Source: an uncultured Gemmataceae bacterium
Lineage (GTDB): Bacteria > Planctomycetota > Planctomycetia > Gemmatales > Gemmataceae
DNA length: 64,000 bases
Reading direction: 5' to 3'
NCBI GenBank assembly: GCA_963750165.1
Contig: CAVVPN010000003.1
Span: forward strand, 288,001 to 352,000
Shown: positions 22,500-51,700 of the stretch, piece by piece
Layout of the letters: each line of letters begins with the position of its first letter
How positions within the stretch are numbered: position 1 is the first letter of the stretch
Translations under genes and position numbers: made by a program
The notes under the pieces: generated by a model
Databases searched by the model: none
Seen by the model: the letters and a program-made list of their open reading frames with translations, nothing else
What the model was told of the DNA's origin: nothing

Positions 22500-22540
22500 C
22501 GTCTGGAAGACAGAAGCACATTACTGCCGGAGGGACGATC

Positions 22541-28950: not shown

Positions 28951-29044
28951 ACCCCTGTCCCGGTCAAACGGTTGACTCCCGTGGCAGTAGGAGGCGGCGT
29001 CACGTCCCGTGCCGTTGCGGTGCGGCGGCCATGCCGAGAATTCG

Positions 29045-30322: not shown

Positions 30323-30336
30323 AAGGGAGTTGGCCC

Positions 30337-31449: not shown

Positions 31450-31469
31450 CAGAAATCGAAGGAACAGAC

Positions 31470-33293
31470 ATGAGCACCACACACTCTCCCGAGGTCCACG
31501 CCCACCCACACCCCGAGCTTGGGTTTTTGCGGAAGTACATCTTCTCCGAAGACCACAAGATCATCGGCATTCAGTTCCTGTTCACGACGCTGATCTTCCT
31601 GGGCATCGGCGGTATGCTGGCGATGTTCGTGCGCATGCAGCTGGGCTGGCCGCACGGCGAACTGCCCGGCTTCAGCCAGATGTTCCAGCGCAGTAACGGC
31701 GGCCGCATGTCCGGCGATTTTTATAACATGCTGTTCACCATGCACGCCTCGGTGATGATCTTCTTCGTCATCATCCCAATCCTGGTGGGCGCCTTCGGTA
31801 ACTTCACGATCCCGTTGATGATCGGCGCCCGCGACATGGCGTTTCCGAAGTTAAATATGCTGTCGTACTGGTTCATGTGGCCGGCGATGGTGTTCATCCT
31901 GTTGAGCTTCACCGTCCAGGGCGGTGCCGCCGCGGCCGGCTGGACCTCGTACCCGACGCTGGCCAGCGCCTCGATGCCGTGGGGCGGCGGCTTTAACGCG
32001 CCGGCGGCGCCGGGCTCTGGCATGGGTCAAATCTGGTGGCTGACGGCGCTGCTGTTCGTCGGCATCTCGTCGATGATGGGCTCGGTGAACTACATCACGA
32101 CTATTGTGAACCTGCGGGCCGCCGGCATGACGCTGTACCGCATGCCGATGACGACCTGGGCCATGTTCATCACCGCCATCCTGCAGGCGTTCGCGCTGCC
32201 GGTGCTGACGGTCGGCCTGATCCTGCAACTGCTCGACAAGACCATCGGCACGACCTTCTTCCTGCCTCCGGCGGGCATTGACTTCGGCAACTATCACATC
32301 GGCCCCGGCGGCGGCCAGCCGCTGCTGTGGCAGCATGTGTTCTGGTTCTACTCGCACCCGGCGGTGTACATCATGATCCTGCCGGCGATGGGCATGGTGT
32401 CGGACATTATTTCCACGTTCGCGCGGCGGCCGCTGTTCGGCTACCGGGCGATGGTGTATTCCATTGCGGGCATTGCCGGCCTGGGCTTCATTGTCTGGGG
32501 CCATCACATGTTCCAGAGCGGCATGGACCCGCGGCTGGGCACCGGTTTCATGATTGCCACCATCATGATCGCGCTGCCGTCCGCCGTGAAGGTGTTCAAC
32601 TGGCTGGGCACGGTCTGGAACGGCAACCTGCAATTGACGACGCCGATGTTGTTCGCGCTGGCGTTCGTGGCCATGTTCATCATTGGCGGCCTGAGCGGTA
32701 TTTTCATGGCCGCGACGCCGGTGGACATCTTCATCCACGATACCTATTTCATCGTCGCCCATCTGCACTACGTGCTGTTCGCCAGTAGTTTGATGGGCAT
32801 CTTCGCCGGCATCTATTACTGGTTTCCCAAGATGTTCGGCCGGTTGATGAATGAGCCCTGGGGCAAGGTCCACTTTTTCCTCACGTTCGTGGCGGGCAAC
32901 TGTGTGTTCTTCCCGATGCACATCCTGGGCGTGGCCGGCCTGCGCCGCCGCATCGCGGACGTAACCGCCTCGAACCTGGAGGCGCCGCTGCTGGGCATGA
33001 ATCAGTTCATCAGCATTAGCGCCTTCGTGCTGGGGGCCGTCCAGGTGATTTTCTTTGTGAACTTCTTGTGGAGCCTGTTCCGCGGCAAGGTCGCGGGCCG
33101 CAATCCGTGGAACAGCAACACGCTGGAGTGGAGCGCTCCGTCGCCGCCGCCGCACGGCAACTTTGAGGTGGACCCGGTGGTGTTCCGCGGCCCGTATTTC
33201 TATGGCGAACTGGGCATTGAGGAGGACCATGTGCCGCAGTTTCAGGCGCCGGATGGCAAGTCCGGCAACCTCACGCCGGCGGGGCATCATTAA
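31470..33293 (+). CDS. coxA: Cytochrome c oxidase subunit I, type A2
   Basis: DHKIIG, FTMH, FWFYSHPAVY (YS motif), WGHHMF, VAHLHY, RR. Confidence 0.97.
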   Translation: MSTTHSPEVHAHPHPELGFLRKYIFSEDHKIIGIQFLFTTLIFLGIGGMLAMFVRMQLGWPHGELPGFSQMFQRSNGGRMSGDFYNMLFTMHASVMIFFVIIPILVGAFGNFTIPLMIGARDMAFPKLNMLSYWFMWPAMVFILLSFTVQGGAAAAGWTSYPTLASASMPWGGGFNAPAAPGSGMGQIWWLTALLFVGISSMMGSVNYITTIVNLRAAGMTLYRMPMTTWAMFITAILQAFALPVLTVGLILQLLDKTIGTTFFLPPAGIDFGNYHIGPGGGQPLLWQHVFWFYSHPAVYIMILPAMGMVSDIISTFARRPLFGYRAMVYSIAGIAGLGFIVWGHHMFQSGMDPRLGTGFMIATIMIALPSAVKVFNWLGTVWNGNLQLTTPMLFALAFVAMFIIGGLSGIFMAATPVDIFIHDTYFIVAHLHYVLFASSLMGIFAGIYYWFPKMFGRLMNEPWGKVHFFLTFVAGNCVFFPMHILGVAGLRRRIADVTASNLEAPLLGMNQFISISAFVLGAVQVIFFVNFLWSLFRGKVAGRNPWNSNTLEWSAPSPPPHGNFEVDPVVFRGPYFYGELGIEEDHVPQFQAPDGKSGNLTPAGHH

Positions 33294-33300
33294 TGATTGT

Positions 33301-33378
33301 TCTGCCGCTTGCGGCCTGGCGGGCTGCAACCCTTCTGAGACTCAATTGGGTTGCAGGCGCCAGGCCGCAAGCGGCAGA
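33301..33378. repeat. REP-like inverted repeat, family B
   Basis: tctgccgcttgcggcctggcg ... cgccaggccgcaagcggcaga. Confidence 0.85.
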
Positions 33379-33428
33379 CAAGACGGGTCGCAGCGTCAGG
33401 TTATTGGGTTGGGTTCTTTGAAACGGAT

Positions 33429-34411
33429 ATGGCCACCACCCTCACCACTCCTGTCCGCCACGGGATCCGGCCCGGCGCCTGGGCCCACGGCTGGGCGGTG
33501 CTGACGGCCGCGTGTACGCTGCCGCTACTGACGCTCGGCGCGGAGGTGACCACGCACGGCGTCGGCATGGTGGACCGCCGCGGCTTCCGCGAACCGTGGC
33601 ACCTGCTCGCCCTGTGGCTGCAGGGCGAACCGCTGACGCCGGGCTACGTGATCGAGCATTCGCACCGGACGTTTGGCTTTCTGGTCGGCATCTGTGTGAT
33701 CGTGCTGACGGTGAGCCTGTGGCTGTGTGAGCCGCGCCGCTGGGTGCGCTGGACGGGCGTGGCGGCTTTGGCGGGCGTCTGCATTCAAGGGGTACTCGGC
33801 ATCCTGCGCATCGATCTCAACGCCCTGATGGGCGGTACGCTGCCGCTGGTCCACGGCCTGTTCGCCCAGCTGGTGTTCGCGCTGCTGGTGGGCCTCGCCG
33901 TGGTGACCTCGGGCGGCTGGCAGACGGCTCAGCCCGCGGCGGACACGGAGCGCGTCGCCAACCTGCGGCGCTGGTCGGTGACAGCGGCCGGGCTGGTGTA
34001 CGGTCAGATCATCCTGGGGGCGCTGGTGCGGCACAAGGATTTCGCGCTGGGGCGCGGGCGCACCTGCTCCTGGCGTTCGGCGTGGTCGCGGCGCTGGTCT
34101 GGCTGGCGAAAATGATCTTCACCGAGGTCGAACCGGATCGGCCGGTGCGGCGCGGCATGGGTGTGGTGCTGGTGATCCTGGTGGTGCAACTTTGGCTGGG
34201 CGTCGAATCGTGGCTGAGCAAATTTGCGGGGATGGGGCAAGCGCTGCGCCAGGCGGAGCCGCTGCCGGTACACGCCGAGCTGGTGCGGTCGCTGCACTAC
34301 CTGACCGGGGCGTTGCTGTTCTCAACGACGGTGGCGCTGGCGCTGCTGGCGCACCGCTCCGTGATCGCCGCCTGGCAGTCCGCGGCGCCGACCAGGGAGG
34401 GGGCAGCATGA
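33429..34411 (+). CDS. ctaA: Haem A synthase (COX15/CtaA); frameshift near 34052
   Basis: IEHSHR, QGVLG, VHGLFAQ, GALVRH, then AHLLLA and RSLH in the next frame. Confidence 0.85.
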
Positions 34412-35334
34412 AGACCGAACTCATCGCCACCGCTGCCCTGCCCGTGGCCCGCTCGCGCCTGGCCGATTACGTCGAACTGACCAAGCCGCGTATCGCCGTG
34501 CTGGTGCTGTTCACCGTCGCCGCCGGCTACTGGCTCGGCAGCCTCGGCAGCACGGATCCGCTCGGATTGCTGCACACGGTCTGCGCCACCGCTCTGATCG
34601 CCGCCGGGGCCAGCGCCCTCAACCAGCTGCTGGAGCGCCACAGCGACTCCCGTATGCGCCGCACCGATCAACGGCCGCTGCCCGCCGGCCGGCTGCTGCC
34701 CGTGGAAGTGCTGGTGTTCGGCCTGGCGCTGGGACTGTTCGGGCTGGCGTACCTGGCGCTGGCGGTGGGCCGGCCCCTGCCGGTGCTGGTCGCCGCGGTG
34801 ACCTTCCTCGGCTACGTCGCGGTGTACACGCCGCTGAAACGGCTGACGGTCTGGAACACGCTGGTGGGCGCGGTCCCCGGGGCGTTGCCGCCGGTCATCG
34901 GCTGGGCGGCGGCACGCGGCACGCTGGACGCGGACATCGGCGCGGTGTTTTTGATCCTGTTCCTGTGGCAGGTGCCGCACTTCCTGGCCATCGCCTGGAT
35001 TTACCGCGACGACTACGGTCGGGCCGGGCTGCGGATGCTGCCGGTGGGCGACCCGCTGGGCAACCGTACTGCCCGGCACATGGTCGGCTTCTGCGCGGCG
35101 CTGGTGCTGGCGAGTCTGCTGCCGGTGCTGCTGCGGTTGGCGGGGCCGGTGTACCTGGTGGGTGCCTTGCTGCTGGGGCTGCTGTTCCTGCGGGCGACGC
35201 TGCGGTTCTGGCTGGAGCGGACTGCCGTGCAGGCTCGGGGCGTCCTGCGGGCGTCGCTACTGTATCTGCCGTTGCTGCTCGCGCTGTTGTTGTTGGAAGG
35301 GGTGTTGCGCCTGACCATCCACGACCCAGGATAG
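34408..35334 (+). CDS. cyoE: Protohaem IX farnesyltransferase (haem O synthase)
   Basis: ELTKPRI, NQLLERHSD.RMRRT..RPLP.GR, YTPLKR, GAVPGALPP, WQVPHF. Confidence 0.95.
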   Translation: MKTELIATAALPVARSRLADYVELTKPRIAVLVLFTVAAGYWLGSLGSTDPLGLLHTVCATALIAAGASALNQLLERHSDSRMRRTDQRPLPAGRLLPVEVLVFGLALGLFGLAYLALAVGRPLPVLVAAVTFLGYVAVYTPLKRLTVWNTLVGAVPGALPPVIGWAAARGTLDADIGAVFLILFLWQVPHFLAIAWIYRDDYGRAGLRMLPVGDPLGNRTARHMVGFCAALVLASLLPVLLRLAGPVYLVGALLLGLLFLRATLRFWLERTAVQARGVLRASLLYLPLLLALLLLEGVLRLTIHDPG

Positions 35335-35347
35335 AAGTTGATCTCTC

Positions 35348-36883
35348 ATGACACAAACGCTTCTGCAAGAGCCGAAACCGACGACCCACGCCGAACACGC
35401 TCCGGGGCACCCGGCCGGGCACATGGGCCTGCCGCTGCCGCACGGCAAACTGGCCATGTGGCTGTTCCTCATCACGGAGATCATGTTCTTCACCGGGCTG
35501 ATCGGCGTGTACATTATCCTGCGCAACGGCCAGCCAACCCGCAGCGAGCCGTGGCCCACCCCGCATGACGTTCACCTGGTTGAGTGGATCGGAGCGCTGA
35601 ACACCTTCGTGCTCATTTGCAGCAGTTTCACCGTCGTGCTCGCCCACCTCGCCCTGGGCAAGAAGAACGTCCGGGCGGCGGTCGGCTACATCGCCGTCAC
35701 GCTGGCCCTGGGCTGCGTCTTCCTGGGCATCAAGGCCTACGAATATCAGGCCAAGTTCCAGCACGAAATCCTGCCCGGCAAGATTCCGGAAAAGCTCGAC
35801 ACCCCCGCTGGCTTCCGCTACGTCAACCACGTTCGCGACCAGCTGGAAAAGATCGTCAAGGAGCCGGCCAAGTTCACCGGTGCCTCGAACCTGTCGATGT
35901 GGCACTGGAACTACTTCCTGCGCCAGGTGGACAGGCTCAAGACCGCGAACAACGCCGCCCGGGTCGAAATCGACAACAAGTACAAGGAGGCCGGCACGAA
36001 CTTCGACACGCTCGACCCGGAACTGGCTAATCAGGTGGCCAAGCCGCTGGAGAGACGCAAGAAGATCGAGGCGGACTTCTCGGACATCAAGAACCTCGAA
36101 AAGGTCGATCCGGCGCTGGCGAAACAGATCGCCGGCCTGGACGCGAAAAAGGCCGCCGTCGAGAAGAAGTACGCGACCACCAAGGACTTCAGCAAGCTCG
36201 ACCCGGAACTGGCGAAAACGCTGGCCGGGCTGAAGGGCAAGGAGAAGGACAAGGCTGCGGCGAAAGCGATTACGGACGCCCGGGAGAAGAAACTGTTGCC
36301 CCTGGAGAACGCCAAAACCGCGGCCATCGAAAAGGCCAAGGGCTTGCTGATTGCCCCCATTGATGCCCAGGTCGCCAGTGAGGTGAACGCCGCCAAGGAC
36401 CGAAAAAAGAAGATCATCGACGACGCCATGGCCGCGGCGATCGAGAAGGAACGCAAGGTCCTGTACGACCTGCACCGCGACCTGCACCCGGTCATCGACA
36501 GCTGGGAACTGCTGGAAAAGCTGCCGAACCTGACGCCGAAGCAGCTCAACCTGGAAGTCGCCGGCAGTCACGTCAAGCCCGTGGACCGGGTGCCGGGCTA
36601 CAAGGTGGACAAGGGGTTGCTGGAGAAACACGAGGACAGGGATTTGCAGGTCGCGCATGCCATCCCGTTCGGCAACATGTGGGCGTCGTGCTACTTCGCC
36701 ATGACGGGCTTCCACGCCCTGCACGTCTTCGGCGGGTTGGTGATTTTCGTCATCGTCCTCGTCCTGGCGGCCAGGGGCCGCTTCGGGCCGCAGCACGAGA
36801 GCATGCTCGAACTGACCGGGCTGTACTGGCACTTTGTTGACATCGTGTGGATTTTCCTGTTCCCGCTGCTATACCTGGTGTGA
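35348..36883 (+). CDS. coxC: Cytochrome c oxidase subunit III with a large soluble insertion
   Basis: [30 protein letters not shown]-terminal [27 protein letters not shown]. Confidence 0.92.
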
Positions 36884-36916
36884 CGCAAGCGCCGTTCGCG
36901 GCGAGGAGAAGGCAAC

Positions 36917-37279
36917 ATGGCGGAAAGTCACGGCGGCGAGCACGGACACCACGGCCCCACTATCATGCTCTACCTGGGCGTGTTCGCGGCTCTGTGCGTG
37001 TTCACGGCAATGTCGTTCGGCATTTTCGAGGTGCTGAGCGAGCAGAAAATGATTGCCATGCTGATTATCCTCCTCGTGGCTGTCTGCAAGGCGTTTCTGG
37101 TCGCCACCTACTTCATGCACCTGAAGTGGGATTGGGGCAAGGTCTACTTCATCATGATTCCGGTGATGATCGTCGCCCTGATGATGATGCTCGTGCTGCT
37201 GCCGGACATCGTGCTCGACTGGCACCACGAGCACGAGCGCGACGAACCCGCCGCTGAGATCACCCACGATCATCACTAA
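36917..37279 (+). CDS. coxD: Cytochrome c oxidase subunit IV
   Basis: KAFLVATYFMHLKWD motif, 3 TMs. Confidence 0.88.
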   Translation: MAESHGGEHGHHGPTIMLYLGVFAALCVFTAMSFGIFEVLSEQKMIAMLIILLVAVCKAFLVATYFMHLKWDWGKVYFIMIPVMIVALMMMLVLLPDIVLDWHHEHERDEPAAEITHDHH

Positions 37280-37289
37280 CGAGGCCCTC

Positions 37290-38381
37290 ATGCGTGCCGC
37301 GGTTGTCGCCCTGATACTGCTCGCCCTGGCCGCCCCGGCCCGGACCGACGAGCCGACAGGCGCCCCCGCATCCTTGCGCACCCATGTCGGCGCCGTGCCG
37401 GACTTCACGCTGACCGAGCGCAGCGGCAAGCAGGTGCGGCGCGACGACCTCAAGGGCAAGGTCTGGGTCGCCGCCTTCACCTACACCTGCTGCGACACCG
37501 GCTGCGACAAGCTCACCGCCAACCTGGTCAAACTGCAAAAGCGCCTCGCTGACTGCCCGGACGCGCGGATCGTCACCTTCAGCGTTCACCCGGAGCAGGA
37601 CACGCCGGCAGTGCTGGAAAAGTACGCGAAAAAGCACGAGGCCGACGCCGACCGCTGGCTGTTCCTGACCGGCGACGAGAAGGCCATGTACGCGCTGGTG
37701 GAGCAGGGGTTCAAGCTGGCCGTCTCCCGCAACAAGGACGCCCCGAAGGGGCAGGACGTCCAGCACAGCTTTTTCTTCATGGTGGTGGACCGCCGGGGCC
37801 AGATCCGCGGTTACCTCGACGGCCGCAAGGCGGAAAACATGCAACACCTGGAAAAGCGTGTCCGGGAACTGGTCGCGGCCAGGGCGGGTGACCCCGACGC
37901 CAGCGCCGCGGACGACCTTGACGCACCGCAGCCACGCCCGGAGCCGCCACAGACCAGCGTCTTGCCCGCCGTCAACGCCTTGCTCAACGGGGCCTGTGCG
38001 CTGCTGCTCATCCTCGGTTACGTGTCGGTGCGGCATGGGCGGATCACCCTGCACAAGGTCTGCATGCTGACGGCGCTGTGCGTGTCGGTGGTGTTCCTCG
38101 GCTGCTACCTGTATTACCACTTCGCTGTCAAGAACGGCGAACCGACCCGCTTCCCCGGAGTGGGCTGGGTGCAGCCGGTCTACTACGGCATCCTCGGGAC
38201 GCACACCGTCCTGGCGGCCCTGGTGGCGCCGCTCGCCCTGCTGACGACGTACCGCGGCCTGCGCGGCACCATCACGAAGCACACGCGGCTGGCGCGCTGG
38301 ACGCTGCCGATCTGGTTGTACGTGTCCGTTACCGGCGTGGTTGTGTACTGGATGCTGTATCAGCTGTATCCTGCCCACTAA
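37290..38381 (+). CDS. SCO copper chaperone fused to a DUF420 membrane domain
   Basis: PDFTLTERSG, CDTGC (CxxxC), SVHPEQDTP, QHS; then NALLNG, H..CML, HTVLA, H.RLARWTLPIWLYVSVTGV. Confidence 0.88.
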   Translation: MRAAVVALILLALAAPARTDEPTGAPASLRTHVGAVPDFTLTERSGKQVRRDDLKGKVWVAAFTYTCCDTGCDKLTANLVKLQKRLADCPDARIVTFSVHPEQDTPAVLEKYAKKHEADADRWLFLTGDEKAMYALVEQGFKLAVSRNKDAPKGQDVQHSFFFMVVDRRGQIRGYLDGRKAENMQHLEKRVRELVAARAGDPDASAADDLDAPQPRPEPPQTSVLPAVNALLNGACALLLILGYVSVRHGRITLHKVCMLTALCVSVVFLGCYLYYHFAVKNGEPTRFPGVGWVQPVYYGILGTHTVLAALVAPLALLTTYRGLRGTITKHTRLARWTLPIWLYVSVTGVVVYWMLYQLYPAH

Positions 38382-40712: not shown

Positions 40713-40869
40713 ACAGGAAGTTGCGCGATGCCATTTCAGCCGATGACATGTTGAAGCACCTCGGCGGCGCCCTCCTCACCACCGGTCCTCTTCTGCCGGC
40801 TCGATCGGTGGCACCTTGCCAGGTACTTGACGAAAGGTCTCGAGTTCCAGCGCCGGCTACGCAGGACAG

Positions 40870-42205
40870 TCATTTCCCAATACAGAATCGGCTGAAAATG
40901 CGGTCCAGCAAATCCTCCGTGTAGACAGCGCCGACCAGCGCCCCCAGTTGGTCGAGCGCCCGCGCAGCTCCAGCGCCAGGATTTCGGGCGGATCCTCGTG
41001 CAGCGCCACGCCGTGCGCCAGCCGCAGATGGTTCAGGCACGCCTCGACGTGATGACGGCAGCGGCTCAGACTCGGCGCCAGCGCCGGCTGCCGTCGCGCC
41101 CGCGCCCGCTCCGCCAGCAGCCGCCGCAGTGCGTCCAGCCCCGTGCCGCTGTGGGCGCTGGTCGCCAGCAGACCGGGCGGCGCCGCGGCCAGGTCGCACT
41201 TGGTCGCGATCATCACGACCGGCGGCCGACCCGCCTCCACCAGCCGTCGCTGCTCCGCGTCCAGTGCCGGCGCGGCAGCCTCGACGCACAGTAGCAGCAG
41301 GTCCGCCTGCGCCGCCTCGGCGCGGCCGAGCGCCTGGGCCCGGCCCTCGACCGCATTGACAGCGGTGCGCCAGCCGGCCGTGTCGAGCAGGTCCAACGCG
41401 ACACCGCCGAGGTCGAGGCGGCGCTGCAGATAGTCGCGCGTCGTGCCCGGCTGTGGGCTGACCAGCGCCGCGGCGGCCCCGGCCAGGGCGTTGAACAGGC
41501 TGCTCTTGCCGACGTTCGGCCGCCCCGCCAGCACCACGCGGAACGGTCGCTCGGAGACAGCCCGCTCCTGCAACTGTTTCCGCAACAGCGTCACCAGCGC
41601 CAGCCCCTTGCTCAGCCGCAGCAGCAAAGCGTCCTGGGCGATGAAGTGAATGTCCTCGTCGGCGAAGTCCAGGCCCGCCTCCACGTCGGCCAGCAGGTTG
41701 AGCAGATCCTCGCGGCAGTCCTGCAGCGGCCGCGTCACGCCGCCGGCCAGCTGGGCCAGCGCCTGCTTCAACTCGTCGCGGCTGCCGGCCTCGATGACGC
41801 CGAGCACCGCCTCCGCGCGCGGCAGGTCCAGCTTGCCGGCCAGGAACGCACGCAGCGTGAACTCGCCTGGCTGCGCCGCCCGCGCCCGGCGTTCAGACAC
41901 TCCGCGATCAGCACTTCGAGCAAGGGTGGACAGGAGATGGTGTGCAGCTCGACTAGCGGTTGGCCGGTGTAGGTGCGCGGCGCCGGCCAGATGTAAAGGT
42001 CGGCGGGCAGCGGCGCGGTCACGTCGGGCAGCCGAACCGCCCCGGGGTGGAGGCGGCGCTGTTGTGGGTCCACGTCGTCCGCCGTGTGGAAGACGCGCAG
42101 CGCGACGGTCAACGCCGCCGGCCCCGTCAGCCGCACGATGGCGCGGCCGCCGGGGCCGGGGGCGGTGGCGAGGGCAACAATGGTGTCCTGCGGATCGGGC
42201 AGCAT
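40870..42205 (-). CDS. mnmE: tRNA modification GTPase MnmE; frameshifts near 41886 and 40960
   Basis: DTIVALATAPG, PRTYTG, PGEFTLRAFLAGKLDL, GRPNVGKSS, GTTRD, DTAG, TKCD, IFSRFCIGK. Confidence 0.93.
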
Positions 42206-42450: not shown

Positions 42451-44165
42451 TCACACTTCCTCCGCGGATCGCTTCCGCCGTCGCAGCACCGCCGGCGCCG
42501 CGATCAGCAGACCGAGGCCGCCGAGGAAGCCGAGGTACACCAGGCTGTGCATCTGCGGCACGACCAGGCCGCGCACGCCCACGTCCGACTTCTTCGTCTC
42601 GCTGACCTGCACCCGGCGGGCTTTGCCGTGCGCGTCCCGCTCGTTCGACAGCTCCTGCTCCACGGAAATGCTGATCTCCCGCCGCGTACCATCCTGCGCC
42701 TGCCGCCGGCTTGGCACGATCATGGTGGTGTAATTCTCCTGCACTTCCCGGACGACGACCTTGAACGTGTCGCGCAGTTTGGCCACGTCGCGGGCGGGGA
42801 GGTACTTGCCGCCGGTGGCCTGGGCGATCTGCTGCAGGGCCTTCTCATCGATGCCCTGGGTGTGTAACTCGATGGACAGATCCTGGAAGCGTTTGATGAG
42901 TTCGTCCTGATTGTGGGCGTGCGAGAAACTGCCGTGCGTGGCCTTCGCCAGGGCGCTCATGGTGACCGCGTCCAGTTCGTCCTTGCGGCCGAAGGCAAGC
43001 ATGTGCAGCACCACGTCGGCGTCCCGGGCGCGTGCGATCACGTCCTCCTGACGGTGCCGGCTGCTGTTGTCCTTGCCGTCGGTCAACACCACCACGAAGC
43101 GCTTGCCCGGCGGGTTGTAGGCGTCCAGGGCGGCCACGGCGTCATAGGTCGCGTCCAGGAACGCTGTCTCCCCCTCCGGCTTCAGGTTGGCGACCTGGGT
43201 TTTCAAGGCGGCCTTGTTCCGGGTGAACGCGCCCAGGGCGCCCACGCGGGTGCTGAACGGCAGCAGAGCGGTCTCGGCCTGGGGGTGGGACTTGTCAATG
43301 AACAGCGTGGCGGCCCGCCGCAGGGCATCCATCTTGGGCGCGGTATCCTGGTCGTCGGCCGGCTCCTTCATGCTGCCGCTCTGGTCCAGGGCCATGATGG
43401 TCGTGATGCGCTGGCTGAGGCCCGGTTCGCCGACGCCAATCGTCCAGACCTGGACGCCGGCGCCCTGGCCGCGCGGATGACCTCCTCCCGTTTGGTCCGG
43501 CTGTAGACATCCACGCCGTCGGTCACCACCACCACGGCCTTGCGGCCCTTGACGCCCTTGAGCATCTGCACCGCCTGGGCGATGGCGTCATAGTAGGCGG
43601 TGCCATTTTTGGGTGCGGTGGCCTGCACCAGCTTGACCAGCTCGGCGCGGTGCTGCAACACGCGCTCGGGTTCCTGACAGGGTTCGCGTTTCAGTCGCAC
43701 CTGGTCGTCGAACAGAATGAGGCCGCAGTCCACCTTCGGGTCGAGAGTGTTGAAAAAGACCCGCGCCGCCTCCTGGGCCGCCTCGATGCGTGTCTTGCCC
43801 TTGCGCGGATCCTCCGGGTCGTTGTTGGCGTTGCTGCCGCGCACGTCCACGGCGAGCACGATCGTCAGACCGGTGTCGGGCTGCTCCTCAATGAGCTTCT
43901 CGCCGACTTTCTTGCCGTCCTCCTTGATGACGATCCAGTACTTACCCGCGCCGGCCGCCGGCAGCGCGCCGGTGCGCCGCACCCGGAACGTGACGCGCAG
44001 GTACAGGCCCTGCTTCTCGCCGGTTTCGTCGGTGCCGACGACCTGCACGCCTTCGTTGGGGTCAAAATCAATTTTGTAAAGTTCATTGCCGGCGGTCTGC
44101 CCGGAAGCCCCCGGTAGAGTGCAGAGCCAACCGACGGTGACCAGCGCAGCCAGGGTGAGTCGCAT
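42451..44165 (-). CDS. Membrane-anchored exported protein with two VWA domains; frameshift near 43461
   Basis: Signal peptide; LAVDVRGS..TAYYDA..VVVTDG; MALDQSGSM..TAFLDA..VLTDG; C-terminal TM plus RRRKR. Confidence 0.85.
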
Positions 44166-44275: not shown

Positions 44276-46894
44276 TTATTTCTTCTTCGCCTCTTTCAGC
44301 ACGTCCTGCCACCAGTTCTTGAGCTTCTGCATGGCCGTGTCGGGTTCCTTCTCCTTCTTGACGGGTCGCTGCTTGCCGCGGCCGCCCGGCTTGCCACCGC
44401 CCGGCTTGCCGCCGCCGCCGCCGCCACCGCCGCCCGACGGGCCGCCGCCCGGTGTCGGCCCCGGCCCCACAGCGGTCGCGGCCGCCAGGGTCTTCTTCGG
44501 CAGCAGTCTCCGCTCCATCAGGCCCCACAGGCTGCTGGCGATGAAGTAGAGGCACAACCCGGCCGCCACCTTGTAGAAGAAGACGCCGAACACGATCATC
44601 ATGTACTTCATCATCTTCTGCTGCATTTCCTGCTGCTCGTCCGCCGGCGGCGGCGTCATCATCTTCTGCTGCGCCAGCATCAGAAACACCGCGATCACCG
44701 GCAACAGGTTCAGGTACGGCCCCAGGTAGAAGAACCAGCCGTAATAGTCTGGGTCGCTGATATACCAGATATTCTGGCCCCAGCGCAGGAGCATGTCCGG
44801 CGCCGCCAGGTTCTGAATCCACAGGAACGGTGCCAGCCGAAAGTGAATGCTCTCCTGCAGGGCGTAGTACAGGCCCAGGAAGATCGGCATTTGCAGCAGC
44901 AGCGGCAGGCAGCTGCCCAGTGGGTTGACGCCGTGCTTGCGGTACAGTTCCATCACCGCCTGATTACGCTTGGTCGGGTCGTCCTTGTATTTTTCCTGGA
45001 CCAGTTTCATTTCCGGCGCCAGGGCCTGCATCTTGATGCTCATCAGCGCCTGCCGGCGGCTGACGGGGAACATCAGGCCGCGCACCAGCACCGTGAGCAC
45101 GATGATCGTCAGGCCGTAAACGGGCACGACCGAGTGCAGCAGGTTCAGCAGCCAGTGCATCAGGTTCGTGCAATAGATGAGCAGCCACGTCCAGCCGATG
45201 GCCTGCGAGATGCCGCCGAACCAGCCGGCCGAGCGGTAGTCGGTGATGGTGCGCAGGTGCAGCGTCTCGGCGTAGCGCTTGACCAGGGCGGGGTCCACTT
45301 CCTTGTCGCCGGTGAACTGGTCGAGCAGGCCGACCTTGGCCGGGCCGTGGTAGAGCACATACTTGTGGATGAGTTTGCCGCGCGGCTTCAGCTCCGGCGA
45401 CGGGTTGCTGACGACACGGACGGTGAAGTCGTCGATCTGCGGCCGATGCTCCTTGCCGCGGCGAATCTCCACCGCCGCCAGGGCCAGCCGACCGCGGTCG
45501 TCGCGGCACTCGTAGAACGACACCAGCACGTCGTTGCCCTTCTCGAACTTGTGATGCCGCATTCGTTCGATGACGTGGGGCGTCAGCAGGAAACTGAGCT
45601 GCTTGTTTTTCAGGTCGGGAAAATGGTCGTCGAGGGCCATGACCACGAGGAGGCCCTTGCTGCCGTCGGTCTCGGCGAGGATGACGCGGCAGCGGAGTTC
45701 CTCGCTCTCCAGCGTGGGCCGGACGTAGGAGAGCACATCTTCCTTTTTGACGCCGCCCCTGGCGCGGTCGGCCTGCTTGTCATCGACGGCGGTGACGCTG
45801 GCGAAGAACTGATTCGAGGTGCCGGCGTACTGCACGTACCATTCGCCGGCGCGGACGACCTCGCCGCCCTTGCGGTTGCTGATGCGAATCTGGGTCTCGT
45901 CCAGGTCGCGGCGCAGGTTGCCGGACCCGTCCACCAGGCCGATCAGCGGCGTGCGGTAGGGGTTGGCGTAATACAGCCCTTCGATGGGCGTGCCGTGAGA
46001 ACCGGACAACTGGTAGCGGAAGGCACGGGCGGACTGGTCCGGCGACTTCTCGTCGCGCTGGTCGATGATCTCGATGGTCAGCCCAAGATGGTATTCCTTC
46101 GGGGCCAGGGTGAAGCGCTTGACGATCTTCAACTTGTCGTAGCCCGGGATTTGATCGCACGACAGCACAACCTGCTGCACCTGTTTGGTCAAGTCGGTGT
46201 CCGGCTCGACCTTCCAGACGATCTCGCCGAGCCGCGCCTGGACGGATTCTTCCTTTTTGGGGTCCGCGTAGTGGTAGAGCAGGAACGAGGCGTAAAACGG
46301 ATCGTCGCGGATCAGCCGAAGCGGGACTTTTTCGCCGTCGGCGTCGAAGACGGGGTGGCCCTCATCGTCGGCGGCCTGGAACATGGGCAGGATCAGCTCG
46401 CGGACGCCGCCGCCCCTGGTCGTGATGCTGGCCTGGATGAAATAGTCCTTGCCCTTGCCCAGGACGAGGGTGCGCGGCCCTTCCGGCGCCGGCGCCGGTT
46501 TGAGTTTGGGCAGCGGCAGCAAGGGGTTGAACGGTAGCTGCGCCAGCAGGGAGGCGGCCGCCAATTTCTTGTGCCCTTCGGGCGACACCTTCTTGAACAG
46601 CTCCCAGAAGGTGAAGCGCACGGTGCGCTCCTCCGCGAGGCGGGCGTCAATGGCCAGGCGGGCGGCGGTAAGCAGGCCAGCGCCGTCGGGCGCGGCGCTG
46701 AGGACCATCTGCGGCAGGATTTCCTTTTGCGCCTGCCGCGACTTCGGCCAGACGGGCGGGGCCGGCTTGTTGGCCTCTTGGTTCTCACCGTCCTGTTTGG
46801 TTTTCGGCGGCCACAGCTGGCTCTGCAAATACATCCAACCCACCCAGGTGGCGGCGGACAGGATGATGAACAGGATGAAGTTTCGTTGCTGCAT
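44276..46894 (-). CDS. yidC: Membrane protein insertase YidC (large periplasmic domain)
   Basis: YGLTIIVLTVLVRGLMFP, KHGVNPLGSCLPLLLQMPIF..LY, FLWIQNLAAPD, GLCLYFIASSLWG..E. Confidence 0.95.
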   Translation of the reverse strand: MQQRNFILFIILSAATWVGWMYLQSQLWPPKTKQDGENQEANKPAPPVWPKSRQAQKEILPQMVLSAAPDGAGLLTAARLAIDARLAEERTVRFTFWELFKKVSPEGHKKLAAASLLAQLPFNPLLPLPKLKPAPAPEGPRTLVLGKGKDYFIQASITTRGGGVRELILPMFQAADDEGHPVFDADGEKVPLRLIRDDPFYASFLLYHYADPKKEESVQARLGEIVWKVEPDTDLTKQVQQVVLSCDQIPGYDKLKIVKRFTLAPKEYHLGLTIEIIDQRDEKSPDQSARAFRYQLSGSHGTPIEGLYYANPYRTPLIGLVDGSGNLRRDLDETQIRISNRKGGEVVRAGEWYVQYAGTSNQFFASVTAVDDKQADRARGGVKKEDVLSYVRPTLESEELRCRVILAETDGSKGLLVVMALDDHFPDLKNKQLSFLLTPHVIERMRHHKFEKGNDVLVSFYECRDDRGRLALAAVEIRRGKEHRPQIDDFTVRVVSNPSPELKPRGKLIHKYVLYHGPAKVGLLDQFTGDKEVDPALVKRYAETLHLRTITDYRSAGWFGGISQAIGWTWLLIYCTNLMHWLLNLLHSVVPVYGLTIIVLTVLVRGLMFPVSRRQALMSIKMQALAPEMKLVQEKYKDDPTKRNQAVMELYRKHGVNPLGSCLPLLLQMPIFLGLYYALQESIHFRLAPFLWIQNLAAPDMLLRWGQNIWYISDPDYYGWFFYLGPYLNLLPVIAVFLMLAQQKMMTPPPADEQQEMQQKMMKYMMIVFGVFFYKVAAGLCLYFIASSLWGLMERRLLPKKTLAAATAVGPGPTPGGGPSGGGGGGGGGKPGGGKPGGRGKQRPVKKEKEPDTAMQKLKNWWQDVLKEAKKK

Positions 46895-47120
46895 AATGGG
46901 CCATCGGCTGGGCGATCCTGGCCGCGGCGCGGCGCGGCGTTGTGCTCCCCGGAACATTGTTAGCATAGCAACTGGCGGCGACAACAGGGAGGTGACTTGG
47001 CGCCCGCGGTGCGCGAACGGCCCTTCGGTTTGACCGCCCGGGCCTGGGGGAGCTATCTTTCCGATACACCCGTCAAGACTCCGCCGCTCGGACACTTACA
47101 GCTTCACCCAGGACGCCACC

Positions 47121-47433
47121 AATCACGGCGCTGTTGCTGCGACGGACGGGTGCGGCGGCGGAAATTCAGGCGTGGCTGCCGGCGGTGGCGACGTATGGAC
47201 GGCAGACGGTGGCGGCGCTACTGCTCGGCAGCGGCGAATTTCGCAACGACGCCGTGCGCACCTTCTACGGCGACCCAAGCGAGAGGCTGCTGCCGTGGGA
47301 GCCGTAGTTCGTGAACCTGCTGCGCCGCCGAGCAGCGCCGGCCGCCGCGGACATCAGCGGCTGGGTGAACTCGGGGTTCGACTTCCTGGCCCTGGAGGTG
47401 ACGCTGGCGGGGAGCCAGGAGTATTACGATCTG
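47121..47433 (+). pseudogene. Remnant of a DUF4214-like C-terminal repeat domain, in-frame TAG at 47305
   Basis: LLRR..AAAEI.AW...GRQTVAA.LLGS.EFR...V..FY...LLRR...A.I.GWVNSG.D.....LAGSQEYY; no start codon; family recalled from memory. Confidence 0.55.
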
Positions 47434-47436
47434 TAC

Positions 47437-47524
47437 TATTGCAGATTGCGAATGGGTGTAGCGGAAGTCGCCAGACTTCCGAGCAGCACCGGACGGAAGT
47501 CTGGCGACTTCCGCTACACCCAAC
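47437..47524. repeat. GTAG-type REP doublet, family D (inverted copy of 38393-38480)
   Basis: Direct sequence comparison. Confidence 0.92.
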
Positions 47525-47749
47525 TGCGAACCGCACTAAAAATACTCCTGCTCGTCCTTGTCAAGCCGGTCTTGAGTACTGCTCATTAGTTGGCTGCGGT
47601 TACGTTCCAGGAATAAGACGAGGGCCCGTGTGGAACAGAACCTCTCAACCAGGGTCGATCAGGTGCTGACTGCGGTCCCAGAAGAGTGCCAAGCCTGACC
47701 GCCACGGTTCGGATCTGACGGGCACTTGCTGGCCGAATCAGGATGGGTG

Positions 47750-47977
47750 TCAGCTGCGCTCCGACACAAACGCCTTGATCCGCTCCTCAAGCGGCCCCGC
47801 CGCCGCGCGCTCCGGGGCGAAGGCGTGCGACAGCGATTCGTCCAACCGCCGCACCACCTCCAACTCCTCGCGGCAGGCGGTGCAGGTGGCGAGGTGCCGA
47901 TTCAACGCCTCGTCCTCGAACAGCAGTTCGCAGTCCACCCGGGCGGAAATCAATTGCAGGACGCGGTCGCAGTTCAT
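47750..47977 (-). CDS. Stand-alone zinc-binding anti-sigma (zf-HC2/ZAS) domain protein
   Basis: MNCDRVLQLISARVD.E......HLATCTAC (HxxxCxxC); paralog of the N-terminus of 48060-49352. Confidence 0.82.
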   Translation of the reverse strand: MNCDRVLQLISARVDCELLFEDEALNRHLATCTACREELEVVRRLDESLSHAFAPERAAAGPLEERIKAFVSERS

Positions 47978-48017
47978 GGCCGGATGCCCTCGCAGTGCGG
48001 CACAACTCACACTTTTT

Positions 48018-48045
48018 TAGTCGAACGAGCCCGGCAAAAGGTTCC
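48018..48045 (-). promoter_or_regulatory. Candidate ECF-sigma promoter upstream of the stand-alone ZAS gene
   Basis: GGAACC-16 nt-CGACTA on the minus strand. Confidence 0.5.
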
Positions 48046-48059
48046 CGCCGCGGCGCCGC

Positions 48060-49352
48060 TCAGGCCGACGCAACCTCGCCCGCGCCGGGGGCCGCCTCGG
48101 CGGGCGGCGGCGCCACCGGCTCGACCTCGACGCAGTTGCGGCCGCTGGCCTTGGCCCGCCGCAGCGCCGTCTCCGCCGCCTTCTTGACCTGCTCGTAGTC
48201 CGCCGGCCGATCCGCCTCCACCACCGCCAGGCCGACGCTGACCGTCACCGGGATTTCCTGGCCGTCGTAGACGAACTTGTGCGCCGCCACCTGCGCCCGC
48301 AGCCGTTCGGCCAGCGCCAGGCCGCCGGCGCGGTGCGTCTGCGGCGCGATCAGCAGGAACTCCTCGCCCCCCATGCGGCCCAGCACGTCGATCTTGCGCA
48401 ACTCCGCCGTCAGCACCCGGGCCAGTTCGCGCAGCACGTAGTCGCCGCCGGAGTGCAAATAGAGCGTGTTGACCTGCTTGAAGAAGTCCAGGTCGATGAC
48501 GCCCACCGTCAGCGCCGACGGGAAGCGCCGCCGCAGGTGCAACTCGCGCTCGACGAGGTGGTCCAGGGCCCGCCGGTTGGGCAACTGCGTCAGCGTGTCG
48601 GTCAGGGCGAACTTCTCCAGCGTCTGCGTCTTCTGCTCCAGTTCGCGGTTGGCCTCCTCCAGGGCGCGCGTCCGCTGCCGCACGCGCTCCTCCAGCTGGA
48701 CGTTCAGCTCGCTCAGTTGGGCCAGCACGCGGCCGTAGTCGCGCTCCAGCTGCAGCTGGCGGCTGGCGTCTCGCAGGGCGTTCAGCAGCGATGCGTTGTT
48801 GCCGAACGGCTTGAGCAGGTAGCGGAAGACGTGGCCGCGGTTGATGGCCTCGACCGCCTCTTCCAGGTCGCCCAGGCCGGTCATCATCAGCCGTTTGGTC
48901 TGGGGGTGGTGCGCCACGGCCCACTCCAGCAGGGTGACGCCGTTCATGCCCGGCATGCGCTGGTCGGTGAGCAGGATGTCGAAGTCGCGGCGCGCGAACC
49001 ACTCCTGGGCCTCGCGGCCGCCGCGGGCGGTCTCGACCTCGAACTCCTCGGACAGGAAGGTGCGCAGGAACAGCAGCGTTGCGGGCTGGTCGTCCACCGC
49101 CAGGACGGTGCAGCGGCGCACCGGCCGGCCGTGCGCCTGCAGGGACGCCTTGACCCGGTCCACCAGCACCTCGGCGGCCTCGCGCTCCGGCTCGTAGGCC
49201 CGCATCAGGAACTCGTCGAGCCGGCGCAGGCCGTCCAGCTCGTGGCGGCAGCCGGCGCAGCCCTCCAGGTGTTCGCCCAGCACCTTGTCCTCGAACAGGA
49301 TTTCACTGTCGATCCGGGCGGAGATCAGTTCCAGGGCTCGGTCGCAGTTCAT
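48060..49352 (-). CDS. ZAS anti-sigma domain - REC - GGDEF diguanylate cyclase fusion
   Basis: HLEGCAGC; REC VDD...TDQRMP...MTG...KPF; coiled coil; TDTLTQLPNRR, IDLDFFKQVN, RKID I-site, GGEEF. Confidence 0.92.
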   Translation of the reverse strand: MNCDRALELISARIDSEILFEDKVLGEHLEGCAGCRHELDGLRRLDEFLMRAYEPEREAAEVLVDRVKASLQAHGRPVRRCTVLAVDDQPATLLFLRTFLSEEFEVETARGGREAQEWFARRDFDILLTDQRMPGMNGVTLLEWAVAHHPQTKRLMMTGLGDLEEAVEAINRGHVFRYLLKPFGNNASLLNALRDASRQLQLERDYGRVLAQLSELNVQLEERVRQRTRALEEANRELEQKTQTLEKFALTDTLTQLPNRRALDHLVERELHLRRRFPSALTVGVIDLDFFKQVNTLYLHSGGDYVLRELARVLTAELRKIDVLGRMGGEEFLLIAPQTHRAGGLALAERLRAQVAAHKFVYDGQEIPVTVSVGLAVVEADRPADYEQVKKAAETALRRAKASGRNCVEVEPVAPPPAEAAPGAGEVASA

Positions 49353-49388
49353 CGCTCGTCTCTCCCGTAGATGTGCGTGGAAAGTCGC

Positions 49389-49416
49389 AGATCGTGGCTG
49401 GGCTCGTGGGCGTTCC
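49389..49416 (-). promoter_or_regulatory. Second candidate ECF-type promoter, upstream of the ZAS-REC-GGDEF gene
   Basis: GGAACG-16 nt-CGATCT on the minus strand, same spacing as 48018-48045. Confidence 0.35.
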
Positions 49417-49431
49417 GTGGTCCCCGAAGTC

Positions 49432-49992
49432 TCACGGCTTCGGCTCCTTGGGCCCGGCCGTGTCCTCCGGCTCCAGGCAGGCGCGCAGCAGCTTGCGGGC
49501 GCGCGTCAGGCGCTGGTTGATGGTGGCGAACGTCACCCCGAGCCGCTCGGCCAGTTCGTCGTAGGTGGTCCGGCCCCCGGAGTAGTAAATCTCCACGACC
49601 TCGCGCAGCTCCACCGGCAGGCGGCGGACGCACTCCTTCAGGTCGTGGGAGCGCTCGCGCCGGGCGTCCGTGTCCGCGTCCGTGTCCGAGATCAGGTCCG
49701 GGGCATCGGCGTCGAGCGACAGATGCCGTCGGGCGGGGTCGCCGAGCCACTCCCGGCACAGGTTGCGGGCGACGGCGTACAGCCAGGAACCGAAGGAGGC
49801 CGGCTCGCGCAGGCTGGTGAGCTTGTCCAGGCCGCGGAGGAAGGTTTCCTGGGTCAGGTCCTCGACCACCTCGGGCCGGCGCACATGGGCCCGGCACAGC
49901 GCGGCGACCTGGCCCGTGTAGCGCTCCACCAGCCGGCCGTAAGCGCCGAGGTTGCCTTGCAACACCTGGCGCACCAGTTCCGCGTCGTCCAT
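49432..49992 (-). CDS. ECF (sigma-70 group 4) RNA polymerase sigma factor
   Basis: RBS GGAGG; DDAELV..AYGRLVERY, EDLTQETFL, FGSWLYAVARN, LP..LREVV..YY...TYDELA..LG....I..RL.RARK.L. Confidence 0.93.
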   Translation of the reverse strand: MDDAELVRQVLQGNLGAYGRLVERYTGQVAALCRAHVRRPEVVEDLTQETFLRGLDKLTSLREPASFGSWLYAVARNLCREWLGDPARRHLSLDADAPDLISDTDADTDARRERSHDLKECVRRLPVELREVVEIYYSGGRTTYDELAERLGVTFATINQRLTRARKLLRACLEPEDTAGPKEPKP

Positions 49993-50250
49993 TAACAGCA
50001 CCTCCGAGCAAGGGCGGGCTTGACAGGGCGGCCGGCTTTTTTTGCAACCGGCCCGGGCCGGGCGGCTGCCGCGGTGCGGGCACAGCAGTTCCTCGTCGTG
50101 CATCGCTTCGCCTCCCGGTTGGGTCGGGACTTCTCGCTGTCCTCCCCCTTCCAGAAGGCCATCGGCCCGAAGTTATTACTGTAACATGCCGATTTTTTCT
50201 GCAAGAGTAGAATAAGTGCCGTTACCCGCTTACTCTGGAGGCCCCTCGCG

Positions 50251-50627
50251 ATGGCACACCAACACTCCCCGCAGTTCCTGAAGCTGGTCGAAGATGCCAA
50301 ATCGCGCGTCCGGGAGACGACAGTTGATGAGGTGAAGGCCCGGCTGGACCGTGGCGAGCGGTTCCATTTGGTGGACGTGCGCGAGGACGGTGAGTGGGCG
50401 AAGGACCATTTGCCGGTGCTGTCCACCTGGGCCGCGGCGTCATTGAGCGCGACATCGAGCAGACGATCCCCGACAGGGCGGCGCCGATCGTGCTGTACTG
50501 CGGTGGCGGCTTCCGCTCGGCGCTGGCGGCGGACAACTTGCAGAAGATGGGTTATACCAACGTGCTGTCGATGGACGGCGGGCACCGCGGCTGGCGCGAG
50601 AAGGGCTACCCGTTGACGACGGGCTGA
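50251..50627 (+). CDS. Rhodanese-like sulfurtransferase; frameshift near 50415
   Basis: LVDVRED.EW..HLPGA.HLG, LYCGGGFRSAL, SMDGG..GW. Confidence 0.88.
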
Positions 50628-51700
50628 CGGCGGCCGAATACCAGGGCCGGCAGCAAACGGCCGCGTGCGACGAAGTACAGGCCGGCGCCGCTGACCAGTG
50701 CCCAGTCCAGGGCGTGCGTGACGGCGGCGAAGGCCAGCGCCGCCTCGCCGCTGCCCAGCGCCACCAGGTACAGGCCCAGCCGGGCGAAGCCGTGGAAGGT
50801 GCCGACCGAACCCGGCGCCGCCGGGATCAGCGCCTCCGAACGAGGTTACCACCAAAACCGGCACGTAATGCCACGGCGCCAGGCCGAGCCCCAGTGCCTG
50901 GCCGACGCAGTAGTACGCCGCCGCCGCCGTCGCCCACCAGGCCGCCGACAGGCCCAGCACAAGCACCGTCTGTCCCGGCGACGCAAACACCTGCAACCCT
51001 TCCAGAAAACGGCCGGTCAGATGTTCCACCCTGTCGCCCAGGGCCGGGCTTACCCAGCGCACCGGCGCCGCGACCACGCGCTGCAGCCACGCCCGCCACC
51101 AGTAGCCGACCACCAGCACCAGGGCCAATCCGCCGCCGGCCAGCAGCGCCAGCCGGCCGGCGACCAGCAACTCGGGCCGGTCGGCGCCCACCAGCAGCAC
51201 GTAGACACCCAGCAGGCAAACCAGCGTCAGCACGTCCAGCACGCGCTCGACGGCGACCGTGCCGAGGCCGCGGGCACTGCTGCCGCCCTCGTGGTGGCGC
51301 AGCACGCCGACGCGCACCAGGTCCCCGAGGCGGAAAGGCAGGACGTTGTTGGCCAGCAGGCCGACGCAGATGCCGCTGAGGCAGGAGTGCAGCCGCACCT
51401 GCTGCTGCGCCGCCAGCAAGGCCCGCCAGCGCCACGCCCGCAGCGCCAGGGTGCTCAGAACGAGCGCGGCGGCAGCCAGCAATTCCGGCCCGCGGCACTG
51501 GCAGATCAATTGCCAGCTGTGCGCCAGGTCCACACCGCGGAAGGCCAGCAGCGGCAGTGCGATGCTCAACGCCACCGCCACCGCCAGGGTCACGCCGACG
51601 CGGACACCCGGGCTGCGCGCGCGCGCCGTGCGGGTGGTTCGGTAAGGTCCGGGCAGGTCGGTCGGGCCATCGGCCCGGGAATGGTCAGCGTCTGCACAGG
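50606..51700 (-). CDS. Lysylphosphatidylglycerol synthase TM / UPF0104 flippase-like protein; frameshift near 50835, start uncertain
   Basis: LRAWRWRALL, ANNVLPFRLGDLVR, VAVERVLD, P.APGSVGTFH. Confidence 0.82.

Follow-up and report, generated by a model that had tools for sequence, protein, structure and literature searches.

Extracytoplasmic function (ECF) sigma factors, two-component receivers and cyclic di-GMP (c-di-GMP) usually belong to separate signalling tiers. In the RsiW/SigW, RsrA/SigR and ChrR/RpoE pairs, a class I anti-sigma factor encoded at +1 of its ECF has a four-helix zinc-binding anti-sigma (ZAS) domain with a Cys...Hx3Cx2C motif, and in RsrA and ChrR the release of sigma is redox-controlled. 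The enzymes WspR, PleD and DgcR consist of a receiver (REC), a helical stalk and a GGDEF diguanylate cyclase domain with an RxxD feedback site (I-site), and WspR and PleD are activated by phosphorylation. In this work, we analyzed a locus of an uncultured Gemmataceae bacterium (contig CAVVPN010000003.1, positions 288,001 to 352,000; this whole 64-kb stretch is referred to as the window, and its coordinates are used throughout), in which the gene directly downstream of an ECF sigma gene encodes a 430-aa protein that, judged by its sequence, is RsiW-like in the first 73 residues and WspR-like in the rest. This ZAS–REC–stalk–GGDEF fusion is considered here a real, conserved and apparently undescribed variant of class I anti-sigma factor, in which sigma and cyclase are likely coupled.

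Compared with RsiW, RsrA and ChrR, the fused ZAS is joined to a REC–stalk–GGDEF partner and not to a transmembrane or extracytoplasmic sensor or a cupin; moreover, unlike the RsiW-type proteins, the fusion is soluble and has a standing C-terminal -xSA end instead of an end exposed by cleavage. Compared with WspR, PleD and DgcR, it has an additional N-terminal anti-sigma domain, most of its close homologs carry an AGDEF site, and its scores fall well short of the curated PleD and DgcR cut-offs. To our knowledge, the direct links between c-di-GMP and sigma sequestration known so far concern a sigma28 factor in actinobacteria and involve separate proteins. The RsiG-(c-di-GMP)-sigma WhiG complex and RmdB of Streptomyces, as presented in the accessible parts of PMC7005675 and PMC13232838, also tie c-di-GMP metabolism to sigma availability and include a GGDEF protein contacting sigma, but there the sigma belongs to the sigma28 family, the proteins are separate and the anti-sigma is a coiled coil, whereas the partner here is an ECF; the RsiG motif E(X)3S(X)2R(X)3Q(X)3D was present in 0 of the 25 rows tested. 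In the PhyR-NepR-EcfG system (ECF15), as covered by the available part of PMC8999054, phosphorylation of a receiver likewise controls an ECF, but there REC is attached to a sigma-mimic anti-anti-sigma, whereas here it sits on the anti-sigma itself together with a cyclase output; Pfam detected no sigma-like domain, by which ECF15 is recognised, in the window fusion, which has a ZAS instead.

Architecture and conservation of the fusion protein

The operon genes are all located on the minus strand, in the order ECF sigma gene (49432..49992, 186 aa; Pfam Sigma70_r2 54.1 bits and r4_2 34.6 bits, with 69 close clusters), fusion gene (48060..49352, 430 aa; defined by its open reading frame (ORF) and Pfam) and free ZAS gene, with a gap of 79 nt between sigma and fusion and of 82 nt between fusion and free ZAS. 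The sigma gene has a further in-frame ATG upstream, at 50103, and its homologs begin at MDDAE. The sequence-only reading of this DNA had proposed an ECF followed by a fused ZAS, a receiver with its catalytic residues, a coiled coil and a GGDEF domain with GGEEF and RKID motifs, in a protein without a transmembrane segment, and all of these elements were recovered.

Pfam places zf-HC2 at residues 3-36, Response_reg at 83-192 and GGDEF at 249-406. The ZAS domain (residues 1-73; 49134..49352) carries the ligands C3, H28, C32 and C35 on four helices (4-14, 22-31, 33-52 and 54-73) predicted by AlphaFold2; the receiver (82-185; 48798..49109; PF00072, 74.6 bits) contains D87, D88, D130, T158, Y178 and K181; a 64-residue helix (186-249; 48606..48797) forms the stalk, a WspR-like coiled coil; and the GGDEF domain (250-410; 48123..48605; PF00990, 127.8 bits) has K292, the I-site RKID at 319-322 and the A-site GGEEF at 328-332. 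A disordered Pro/Ala tail (48060..48122; pLDDT <50 at 420-430) closes the protein and ends in -VASA, followed by the stop. The AlphaFold2 model (pLDDT 84, pTM 0.50) comprises four N-terminal helices, receiver, 64-residue helix and GGDEF fold; its top Foldseek matches were WspR, PleD and DgcR, and the maximum 19-residue hydropathy of the protein is 1.18, without any transmembrane-like segment.

The assignment of the N-terminus to zf-HC2 is borderline: it scored 19.4 bits against a cut-off of 22.2 when the whole protein was analyzed, and 23.7 bits in the genome-wide search. The cut-off was passed by 5 of 14 homologs of the two-gene form, and the putative parent proteins (see below) score 25-39 bits; a profile of six fusion N-termini had RsiW as its best PDB sequence (E 1.3e-6).

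Several nearby genes appear to be split between frames (mnmE at 40857-42205, a vWA gene at 42451-44165, a WD40 gene at 21402-23511 and a rhodanese gene at 50251-50628), which suggests indel errors in this assembly, and it was therefore necessary to check the fusion for chimerism, a danger already named in the sequence-only reading. A search with residues 1-78 (among proteins of 236-753 aa) returned 10 other clusters, all of about 430 aa with REC and GGDEF, and the full fusion is also present in two database records (Gemmataceae and an uncultured Planctomycetota), which may overlap the 252 family genomes surveyed below and were kept out of their counts. Since independent homologs occur in 10 clusters and in other genomes, an assembly chimera was rejected.

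Conservation was analyzed in an alignment of 15 close (type A) fusions, with 68 stand-alone cyclases as the comparison set. Invariant in 15/15 were C3, H28, C32, C35, D87, D88, D130, Y178 and K181 of ZAS and REC, D287, N295, D304, G329, E331, K401 and R405 of GGDEF, and R319, D322 and R350 of the I-site, while position 158 was Thr in 14 proteins and Ser in one. Mean identity amounted to 0.69 in ZAS, 0.67 in REC, 0.76 in GGDEF and 0.34 in the tail, and within ZAS it peaked in helix 1 (0.80) and helix 4 (0.78), i.e., the two helices reported for class I anti-sigmas in the accessible text of PMC7406223 to contact sigma4 and sigma2.

This pattern bears on the idea that ZAS has given up sigma binding and now works for the cyclase, as a sensor or as a dimerisation domain stabilised by zinc, the adjacency being a relic. 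The borderline zf-HC2 score and a one-residue deletion of the fused ZAS relative to the parent ZAS would fit such a loss, which we nevertheless find highly improbable, as the sigma-contact helices are the most conserved part of ZAS, every two-gene genome with a full-length ZAS still has sigma upstream, and the only fusion found without cognate sigma upstream (genome G004) has a shortened ZAS lacking helix 4.

Distribution and descent of the fusion

In the survey of 252 Gemmataceae genomes, an alignment search at E<=1e-80 matched 202, and nearly all of the matches listed (150 of 212) were stand-alone REC–stalk–GGDEF proteins. A ZAS fusion with the same sigma directly upstream (5/5) was found in G000, G051, G167 and G169 as type A, sharing 61-66% identity with the window protein, and in G177 as type B (48%); in three more genomes the sigma itself is fused. 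The synteny with this ECF clade seen in the window recurs within the family. All five two-gene and three sigma-fused genomes also retain a stand-alone REC–stalk–GGDEF. Five further sigma/fusion cluster pairs come from contigs of equal size, their adjacency not being seen. At E<=1e-70, no match was obtained in 400 other genomes from the phylum, a metagenome scan returned five loci and no fusion, and a related-locus search with the fusion protein alone returned generic REC proteins only. An order-wide search indicated five more sigma-bearing genomes, of a second family, with open frames of 453-491 aa at the ZAS matches of four of them. The fusion is so far confined to a minority of uncultured members of one planctomycete family.

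The stand-alone REC–stalk–GGDEF is near-universal in the family (about 200 genomes; e.g., G000:C3:1164277-1165308, L015). Of 20 loci examined, 13 have a weak sigma4 match next to it, encoded on the opposite strand; the neighbour in L250 was identified as a sigma70 containing regions 2, 3 and 4. A hidden ZAS was looked for in 20 stand-alone cyclases preceded by long frames, and only G004 showed a remnant (L294, 4484-5653; REC-GGDEF with a short HxxxCxxC remnant, without helix 4); the cognate sigma is not upstream there, and a different ECF-like gene is encoded on the opposite strand at a distance of about 800 nt.

The sigma clade is present in 31 of the 252 genomes. Among its 24 non-fusion loci, ZAS was readable in 23 (one contig ends), where it runs into a FecR-like domain in 22, is accompanied by a transmembrane-like helix in 21 and by REC in none. 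Pfam analysis of four of these parent loci gave zf-HC2+FecR+VIT(+vWA, TPR) or zf-HC2+FecR+HEAT, the two forms being zf-HC2-TM-FecR-VIT-vWA-TPR (about 2000 aa) and zf-HC2-TM-FecR-HEAT (about 450 aa), where TM is the transmembrane helix (L253 1375-7344, L251 3469-8001, L231 and L233). Because 22 of the 23 other loci of the clade have ZAS followed by a FecR-like domain, usually past a membrane helix, the fusion is, as reconstructed from these sequences, a membrane anti-sigma that was rewired by joining it to a duplicated copy of the family-wide REC-GGDEF. In a profile search of 1.84 billion representatives, REC or GGDEF followed ZAS in 8 of the best 150 matches, and a transmembrane-like segment was present in 73 of 122 other long matches; a type that recurred among the matches (P0025, P0028) is about 300 aa long and has three zf-HC2 domains in tandem ahead of a transmembrane helix.

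Within the accessible supplement of PMC7826278 (Casas-Pastor 2021), ECF270, which includes Zavarzinella, has a soluble ZAS at +1, sometimes ECF-fused, ECF46 has a planctomycete transmembrane FecR-like anti-sigma, and ECF290s2 has a REC-diguanylate cyclase at +3, as a separate gene beside a transmembrane anti-sigma; none of the three groups is described there with a cyclase-fused anti-sigma. Diguanylate cyclases come up in two places of the same supplement, for ECF35s2 and for ECF290s2, in both cases as a separate neighbour. The accessible main text contains neither 'GGDEF' nor 'di-GMP', the term 'GGDEF' is also absent from the accessible texts of PMC7406223, PMC8999054 and PMC8103513, and the available part of PMC12943098 mentions only a PrsW-PilZ fusion. 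The sequence-only reading had not recognised ZAS–REC–GGDEF as a described anti-sigma class, which held for the literature searched, where no description of a cyclase-fused anti-sigma was found, most subscription papers and the planctomycete ECF catalogue of Wiegand 2020 being outside this comparison. That catalogue reportedly added 30 planctomycete ECF groups and could describe this sigma clade.

In the sigma+ZAS tree, which omits G045, G046 and G073, six fusion-linked rows lie on one side and the 23 parents on the other (94/91, not starred). In the cyclase tree, which was quick and is unrooted because the outgroup was dropped (4 rows too short), the fused halves do not form one group and are scattered among different stand-alone copies: type A (15 rows) forms a long branch with a support of 100, and the type-B and triple-fusion halves fall beside stand-alone copies of their own genomes; monophyly of the 12 fused cyclase rows was rejected by the approximately unbiased (AU) test (p 0.00013; 38 of 87 rows used). 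A non-monophyletic cyclase half combined with a one-sided sigma-ZAS half suggests that the two parts were rejoined, or their junction maintained, on more than one occasion; we infer either a single rewiring after which the cyclase half was replaced, or several captures.

It could be assumed that the two halves are uncoupled passengers, i.e., that ZAS frees sigma on oxidation or zinc loss, in an RsrA/ChrR-like manner, and the cyclase is merely co-expressed, the fusion fixing the stoichiometry. The zinc ligands are indeed kept by all 15 type-A proteins though lost in 8 of the 23 parents, the free ZAS copy demonstrates that the domain can exist without a cyclase, and soluble class I anti-sigmas are described in the accessible part of PMC7406223 as enriched in zinc motifs and often redox-linked. 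Uncoupled halves are rather unlikely, however, considering the persistence of the fusion across several genera, the contrast between the two trees and, in the same part of PMC7406223, the binding of sigma by RsiW, the closest solved relative, without a need for zinc.

Among further sigma clusters, 69 of 72 are type A. These 69 retain the helix-turn-helix with a consensus of their own and 0.66 identity, the recognition helix reading GVSFGQVNKLLT in type A versus GVSxAT[IV]NARLT in parents, and that of the window sigma (GVTFATINQRLT) being intermediate. The helix-turn-helix was flagged as lacking in 1 of 70 sigma rows, and two more look truncated or frameshifted; a degenerate fusion-linked sigma4, indicated by four sequences, was overturned for type A by the 69 clusters.

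Expectation maximisation found a bipartite motif upstream of the sigmas of the clade (log-likelihood 375 versus 92-99 in three shuffles). Its parent form, TATTAACT-N12-TCTACTA, precedes 22 of 24 parent sigmas (spacer of 12 in 20/22), and the G177 sigma has the motif in this form; the other three type-A sigmas are preceded by TAGTAACT-N14-TCTAGTA, and the window sigma by TAATAACT-N15-TCTGGAA, a candidate autoregulatory promoter (50149..50178, minus strand; TAATAACT at 50171-50178, a 15-nt spacer and TCTGGAA at 50149-50155). Promoter motif and recognition helix both shift from the parents to the fusion lineage, and since the motif shifts along with the sigma, it suggests an autoregulated promoter of the sigma operon. 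The exact type-A motif has one site per genome, at the operon, in 3/3 other type-A genomes and none in G000 or G177; the exact parent motif occurs once each in G051 and G177 (at sigma genes) and in G000 (elsewhere). A weight-matrix scan for the regulon gave 48 genome sites versus 258 in the reversed-genome control and is therefore uninformative.

Proposed coupling of sigma release to the cyclase

In all three genomes of the genus g35 (G044, G045 and G046), sigma, ZAS and REC(-GGDEF) are encoded in a single reading frame. In G044, sigma is followed by an intact ZAS (zf-HC2 36.4 bits) and then by REC, where the contig stops, and both complete triple fusions, G045 (585 aa) and G046 (524 aa), keep GGEEF and the I-site; a search for further sigma-fused forms among proteins of 288-917 aa returned only the query and one unrelated architecture. 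These proteins join sigma to REC, unlike PhyR, through ZAS and with GGDEF, and such single-frame joining may be taken as Rosetta-stone support for a functional link between sigma, ZAS and cyclase. The G044 sigma-ZAS chain was modelled as one unit (pLDDT 92, pTM 0.89), its sigma superposing best on RsiW-bound SigW (TM-score 0.71 versus 0.27-0.45 for polymerase-bound ECFs), which is consistent with binding of sigma by ZAS and may reflect likeness to the solved SigW/RsiW pair.

The wiring may also be the reverse, with sigma, or its sigma2 half, mainly as a regulatory subunit that blocks or promotes dimerisation of the cyclase, transcription being secondary. Retention of an intact GGEEF cyclase in triple fusions that lose the promoter motif and parts of sigma4 and ZAS would agree with this wiring, as would the single exact motif site, at the operon, of the three other type-A genomes; as the helix-turn-helix is conserved across 69 type-A sigma clusters, in the way expected of a working transcription factor, we regard it as decidedly unlikely.

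The C-terminus offers a route that the sequence-only reading had not seen. An -xSA end is present in 14 of the 15 close fusions, 2 of the 68 stand-alone cyclases and 38 of 3643 genome ORFs, and it is kept despite the hypervariable tail; it is a candidate ClpXP-type degron, pointing to regulated proteolysis, and two clpX genes score above the cut-off in the genome. According to the accessible parts of PMC12203970 and bioRxiv 2024.05.08.593097, respectively, ClpXP degrades anti-sigma fragments with a terminal XAA or SVA, and CalpT is removed through an LAA end. As described there, CalpL-CalpT-CalpS and RsgI/RseA resemble the fusion in that the anti-sigma is removed via a small-residue C-terminus, with a nucleotide messenger gating the release in Calp, but their degrons need prior cleavage and mostly end in -AA, and the messenger enzyme is a separate protein.

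The main route of the sequence-only reading was direct allosteric release, in which stalk dimerisation driven by phosphorylation, or cross-linking by c-di-GMP, would pair two ZAS domains and eject sigma without proteolysis. Such a mechanism would also operate in the tail-less type-B and triple fusions, it agrees with the invariant REC and I-site residues, and the linker from ZAS helix 4 to REC (about 8 residues) has a near-constant length in all fusions; on the other hand, it leaves the conserved -xSA end unexplained, and the monomer model has no fixed ZAS-REC packing (pTM 0.50). What usually disrupts a class I anti-sigma complex is proteolysis or the loss of zinc, which counts against allosteric release as well, and we consider it unlikely.

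We favour, at somewhat less than an even chance, a coupled and proteolysis-led model, in which the fusion would be a cytoplasmic class I anti-sigma, its membrane sensor replaced by a response-regulator diguanylate cyclase, and the state of the cyclase would gate sigma release, probably via proteolysis. Very probably, as descent, synteny and fold indicate, ZAS would wrap the co-transcribed ECF in the RsiW manner and bar it from RNA polymerase. Probably, an unlinked histidine kinase would phosphorylate D130, the stalk would dimerise, and c-di-GMP would be made under RxxD feedback, as established for WspR/PleD/DgcR-type enzymes, whose needed residues are present here. In the weakest step, sigma would be freed as a ClpXP-type protease degrades the fusion from the exposed -xSA C-terminus, at a rate depending on the state of the REC-GGDEF half with respect to phosphorylation or c-di-GMP; degradation of the whole protein is proposed because no membrane cleavage is available. 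Free sigma may then transcribe its own operon from the upstream motif, giving new sigma, cyclase and free ZAS, so that the cyclase would control its own expression; the free ZAS (in this sublineage only) would, along with the new fusion, reset or damp the loop, whose main output may be c-di-GMP. A fuller version is put forward tentatively, its probability lying below one half: a phosphorylation-activated cyclase acting as anti-sigma would convert a kinase signal into a c-di-GMP pulse and sigma release via a built-in degron, with its own operon as chief target, as a self-resetting circuit and a new class of ECF regulator. As a part of it, Gemmataceae would show the whole history, from the membrane FecR-type parent through the soluble two-gene form with new promoter specificity to a single sigma-ZAS-REC-GGDEF polypeptide.

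Several observations weigh against this model. The -xSA tail is absent from the type-B and triple fusions (0/4) and is therefore not general to the architecture, and as the 15 aligned type-A proteins form one clade, they are not independent and represent one event kept under selection, not 14. The -xSA end differs from the canonical -AA, the tested ends in the accessible published accounts being XAA and SVA. At A-site position 328, the close fusions have Ala in 12, Gly in 2 and Ser in 1 (AGDEF in 12, SGEEF in 1), and the stand-alone copies have Gly in 67 of 68; a non-canonical A-site is counted in 12/15 versus 1/68, the intact GGEEF of the window protein being an exception among its close homologs, although an AGDEF site is active in VCA0965 according to the available part of PMC3974145. 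The genome has 7 GGDEF and 68 HATPase_c matches by Pfam, the nearest of the latter being about 15 kb from sigma, and none of the 68 falls in the window, in line with the absence of a histidine kinase noted from the sequence. Furthermore, the G045 protein has a ZAS without zinc ligands and a sigma2 that no longer scores, and G046, with a deletion from the last part of sigma4 through half of ZAS, retains sigma2 and ZAS helices 3-4 only; the promoter motif is missing upstream of the triple fusions (0/3), and their sigmas lie on long branches (1.1-2.6). The fusion-adjacent sigma of G167 (L211, 6301-6792) has an in-frame 21-residue deletion, real or due to an assembly error, that removes the sigma4 helix-turn-helix. 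The losses of zinc ligands, sigma4 and helix-turn-helix could be decay rather than function. Finally, the in-cis model, which concerns G044 and hence another genome, lacks a control, is based on an imperfect alignment and resembles a solved textbook pair.

Genomic surroundings and significance

The free 75-aa ZAS (47750..47977, minus strand; zf-HC2 23.1 bits) is a paralogue of the fused domain, with 59% aa and 71% nt identity (dN 0.30, dS 0.54, GC3 0.91); it falls within the coordinates given in the sequence-only reading, which did not mention it. Given this nucleotide identity, dN < dS and the existence of same-length relatives elsewhere (P0014, P0024), a duplication artefact was rejected. 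On its 3' side, there is an inverted repeat with 45-bp arms (47437-47538; z -11), a 26-nt arm piece of which matches the genome 214 times; it is therefore a dispersed palindromic repeat, and it may mark the operon end. A 92-aa plus-strand ORF across the palindrome (47311-47589), without a Pfam match, is probably not a gene. Further 3' of the operon, on the same strand, lies yidC with a long periplasmic region of about 870 aa (44276-47095), which was not beside the fusion in two other loci checked. The window also contains a complete cytochrome c oxidase cluster (29009-38378; cytochrome c, COX2, COX1, CtaA, UbiA, COX3, COX4, SCO-DUF420).

The reach of the finding is limited, since no more than a minority of the uncultured members of a single family was seen to carry the fusion. 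The system, comprising two genes and a predicted promoter, is testable in E. coli or in vitro. If the proposed coupling is true, one small soluble protein would join ECF control, receiver input and c-di-GMP synthesis, and gene switching and second-messenger synthesis would be wired into one molecule. The family also offers a rare natural series of rewiring, in which a sensor was swapped for an enzyme, promoter and recognition helix shifted together, a new C-terminal tag appeared and the sigma factor itself was fused.

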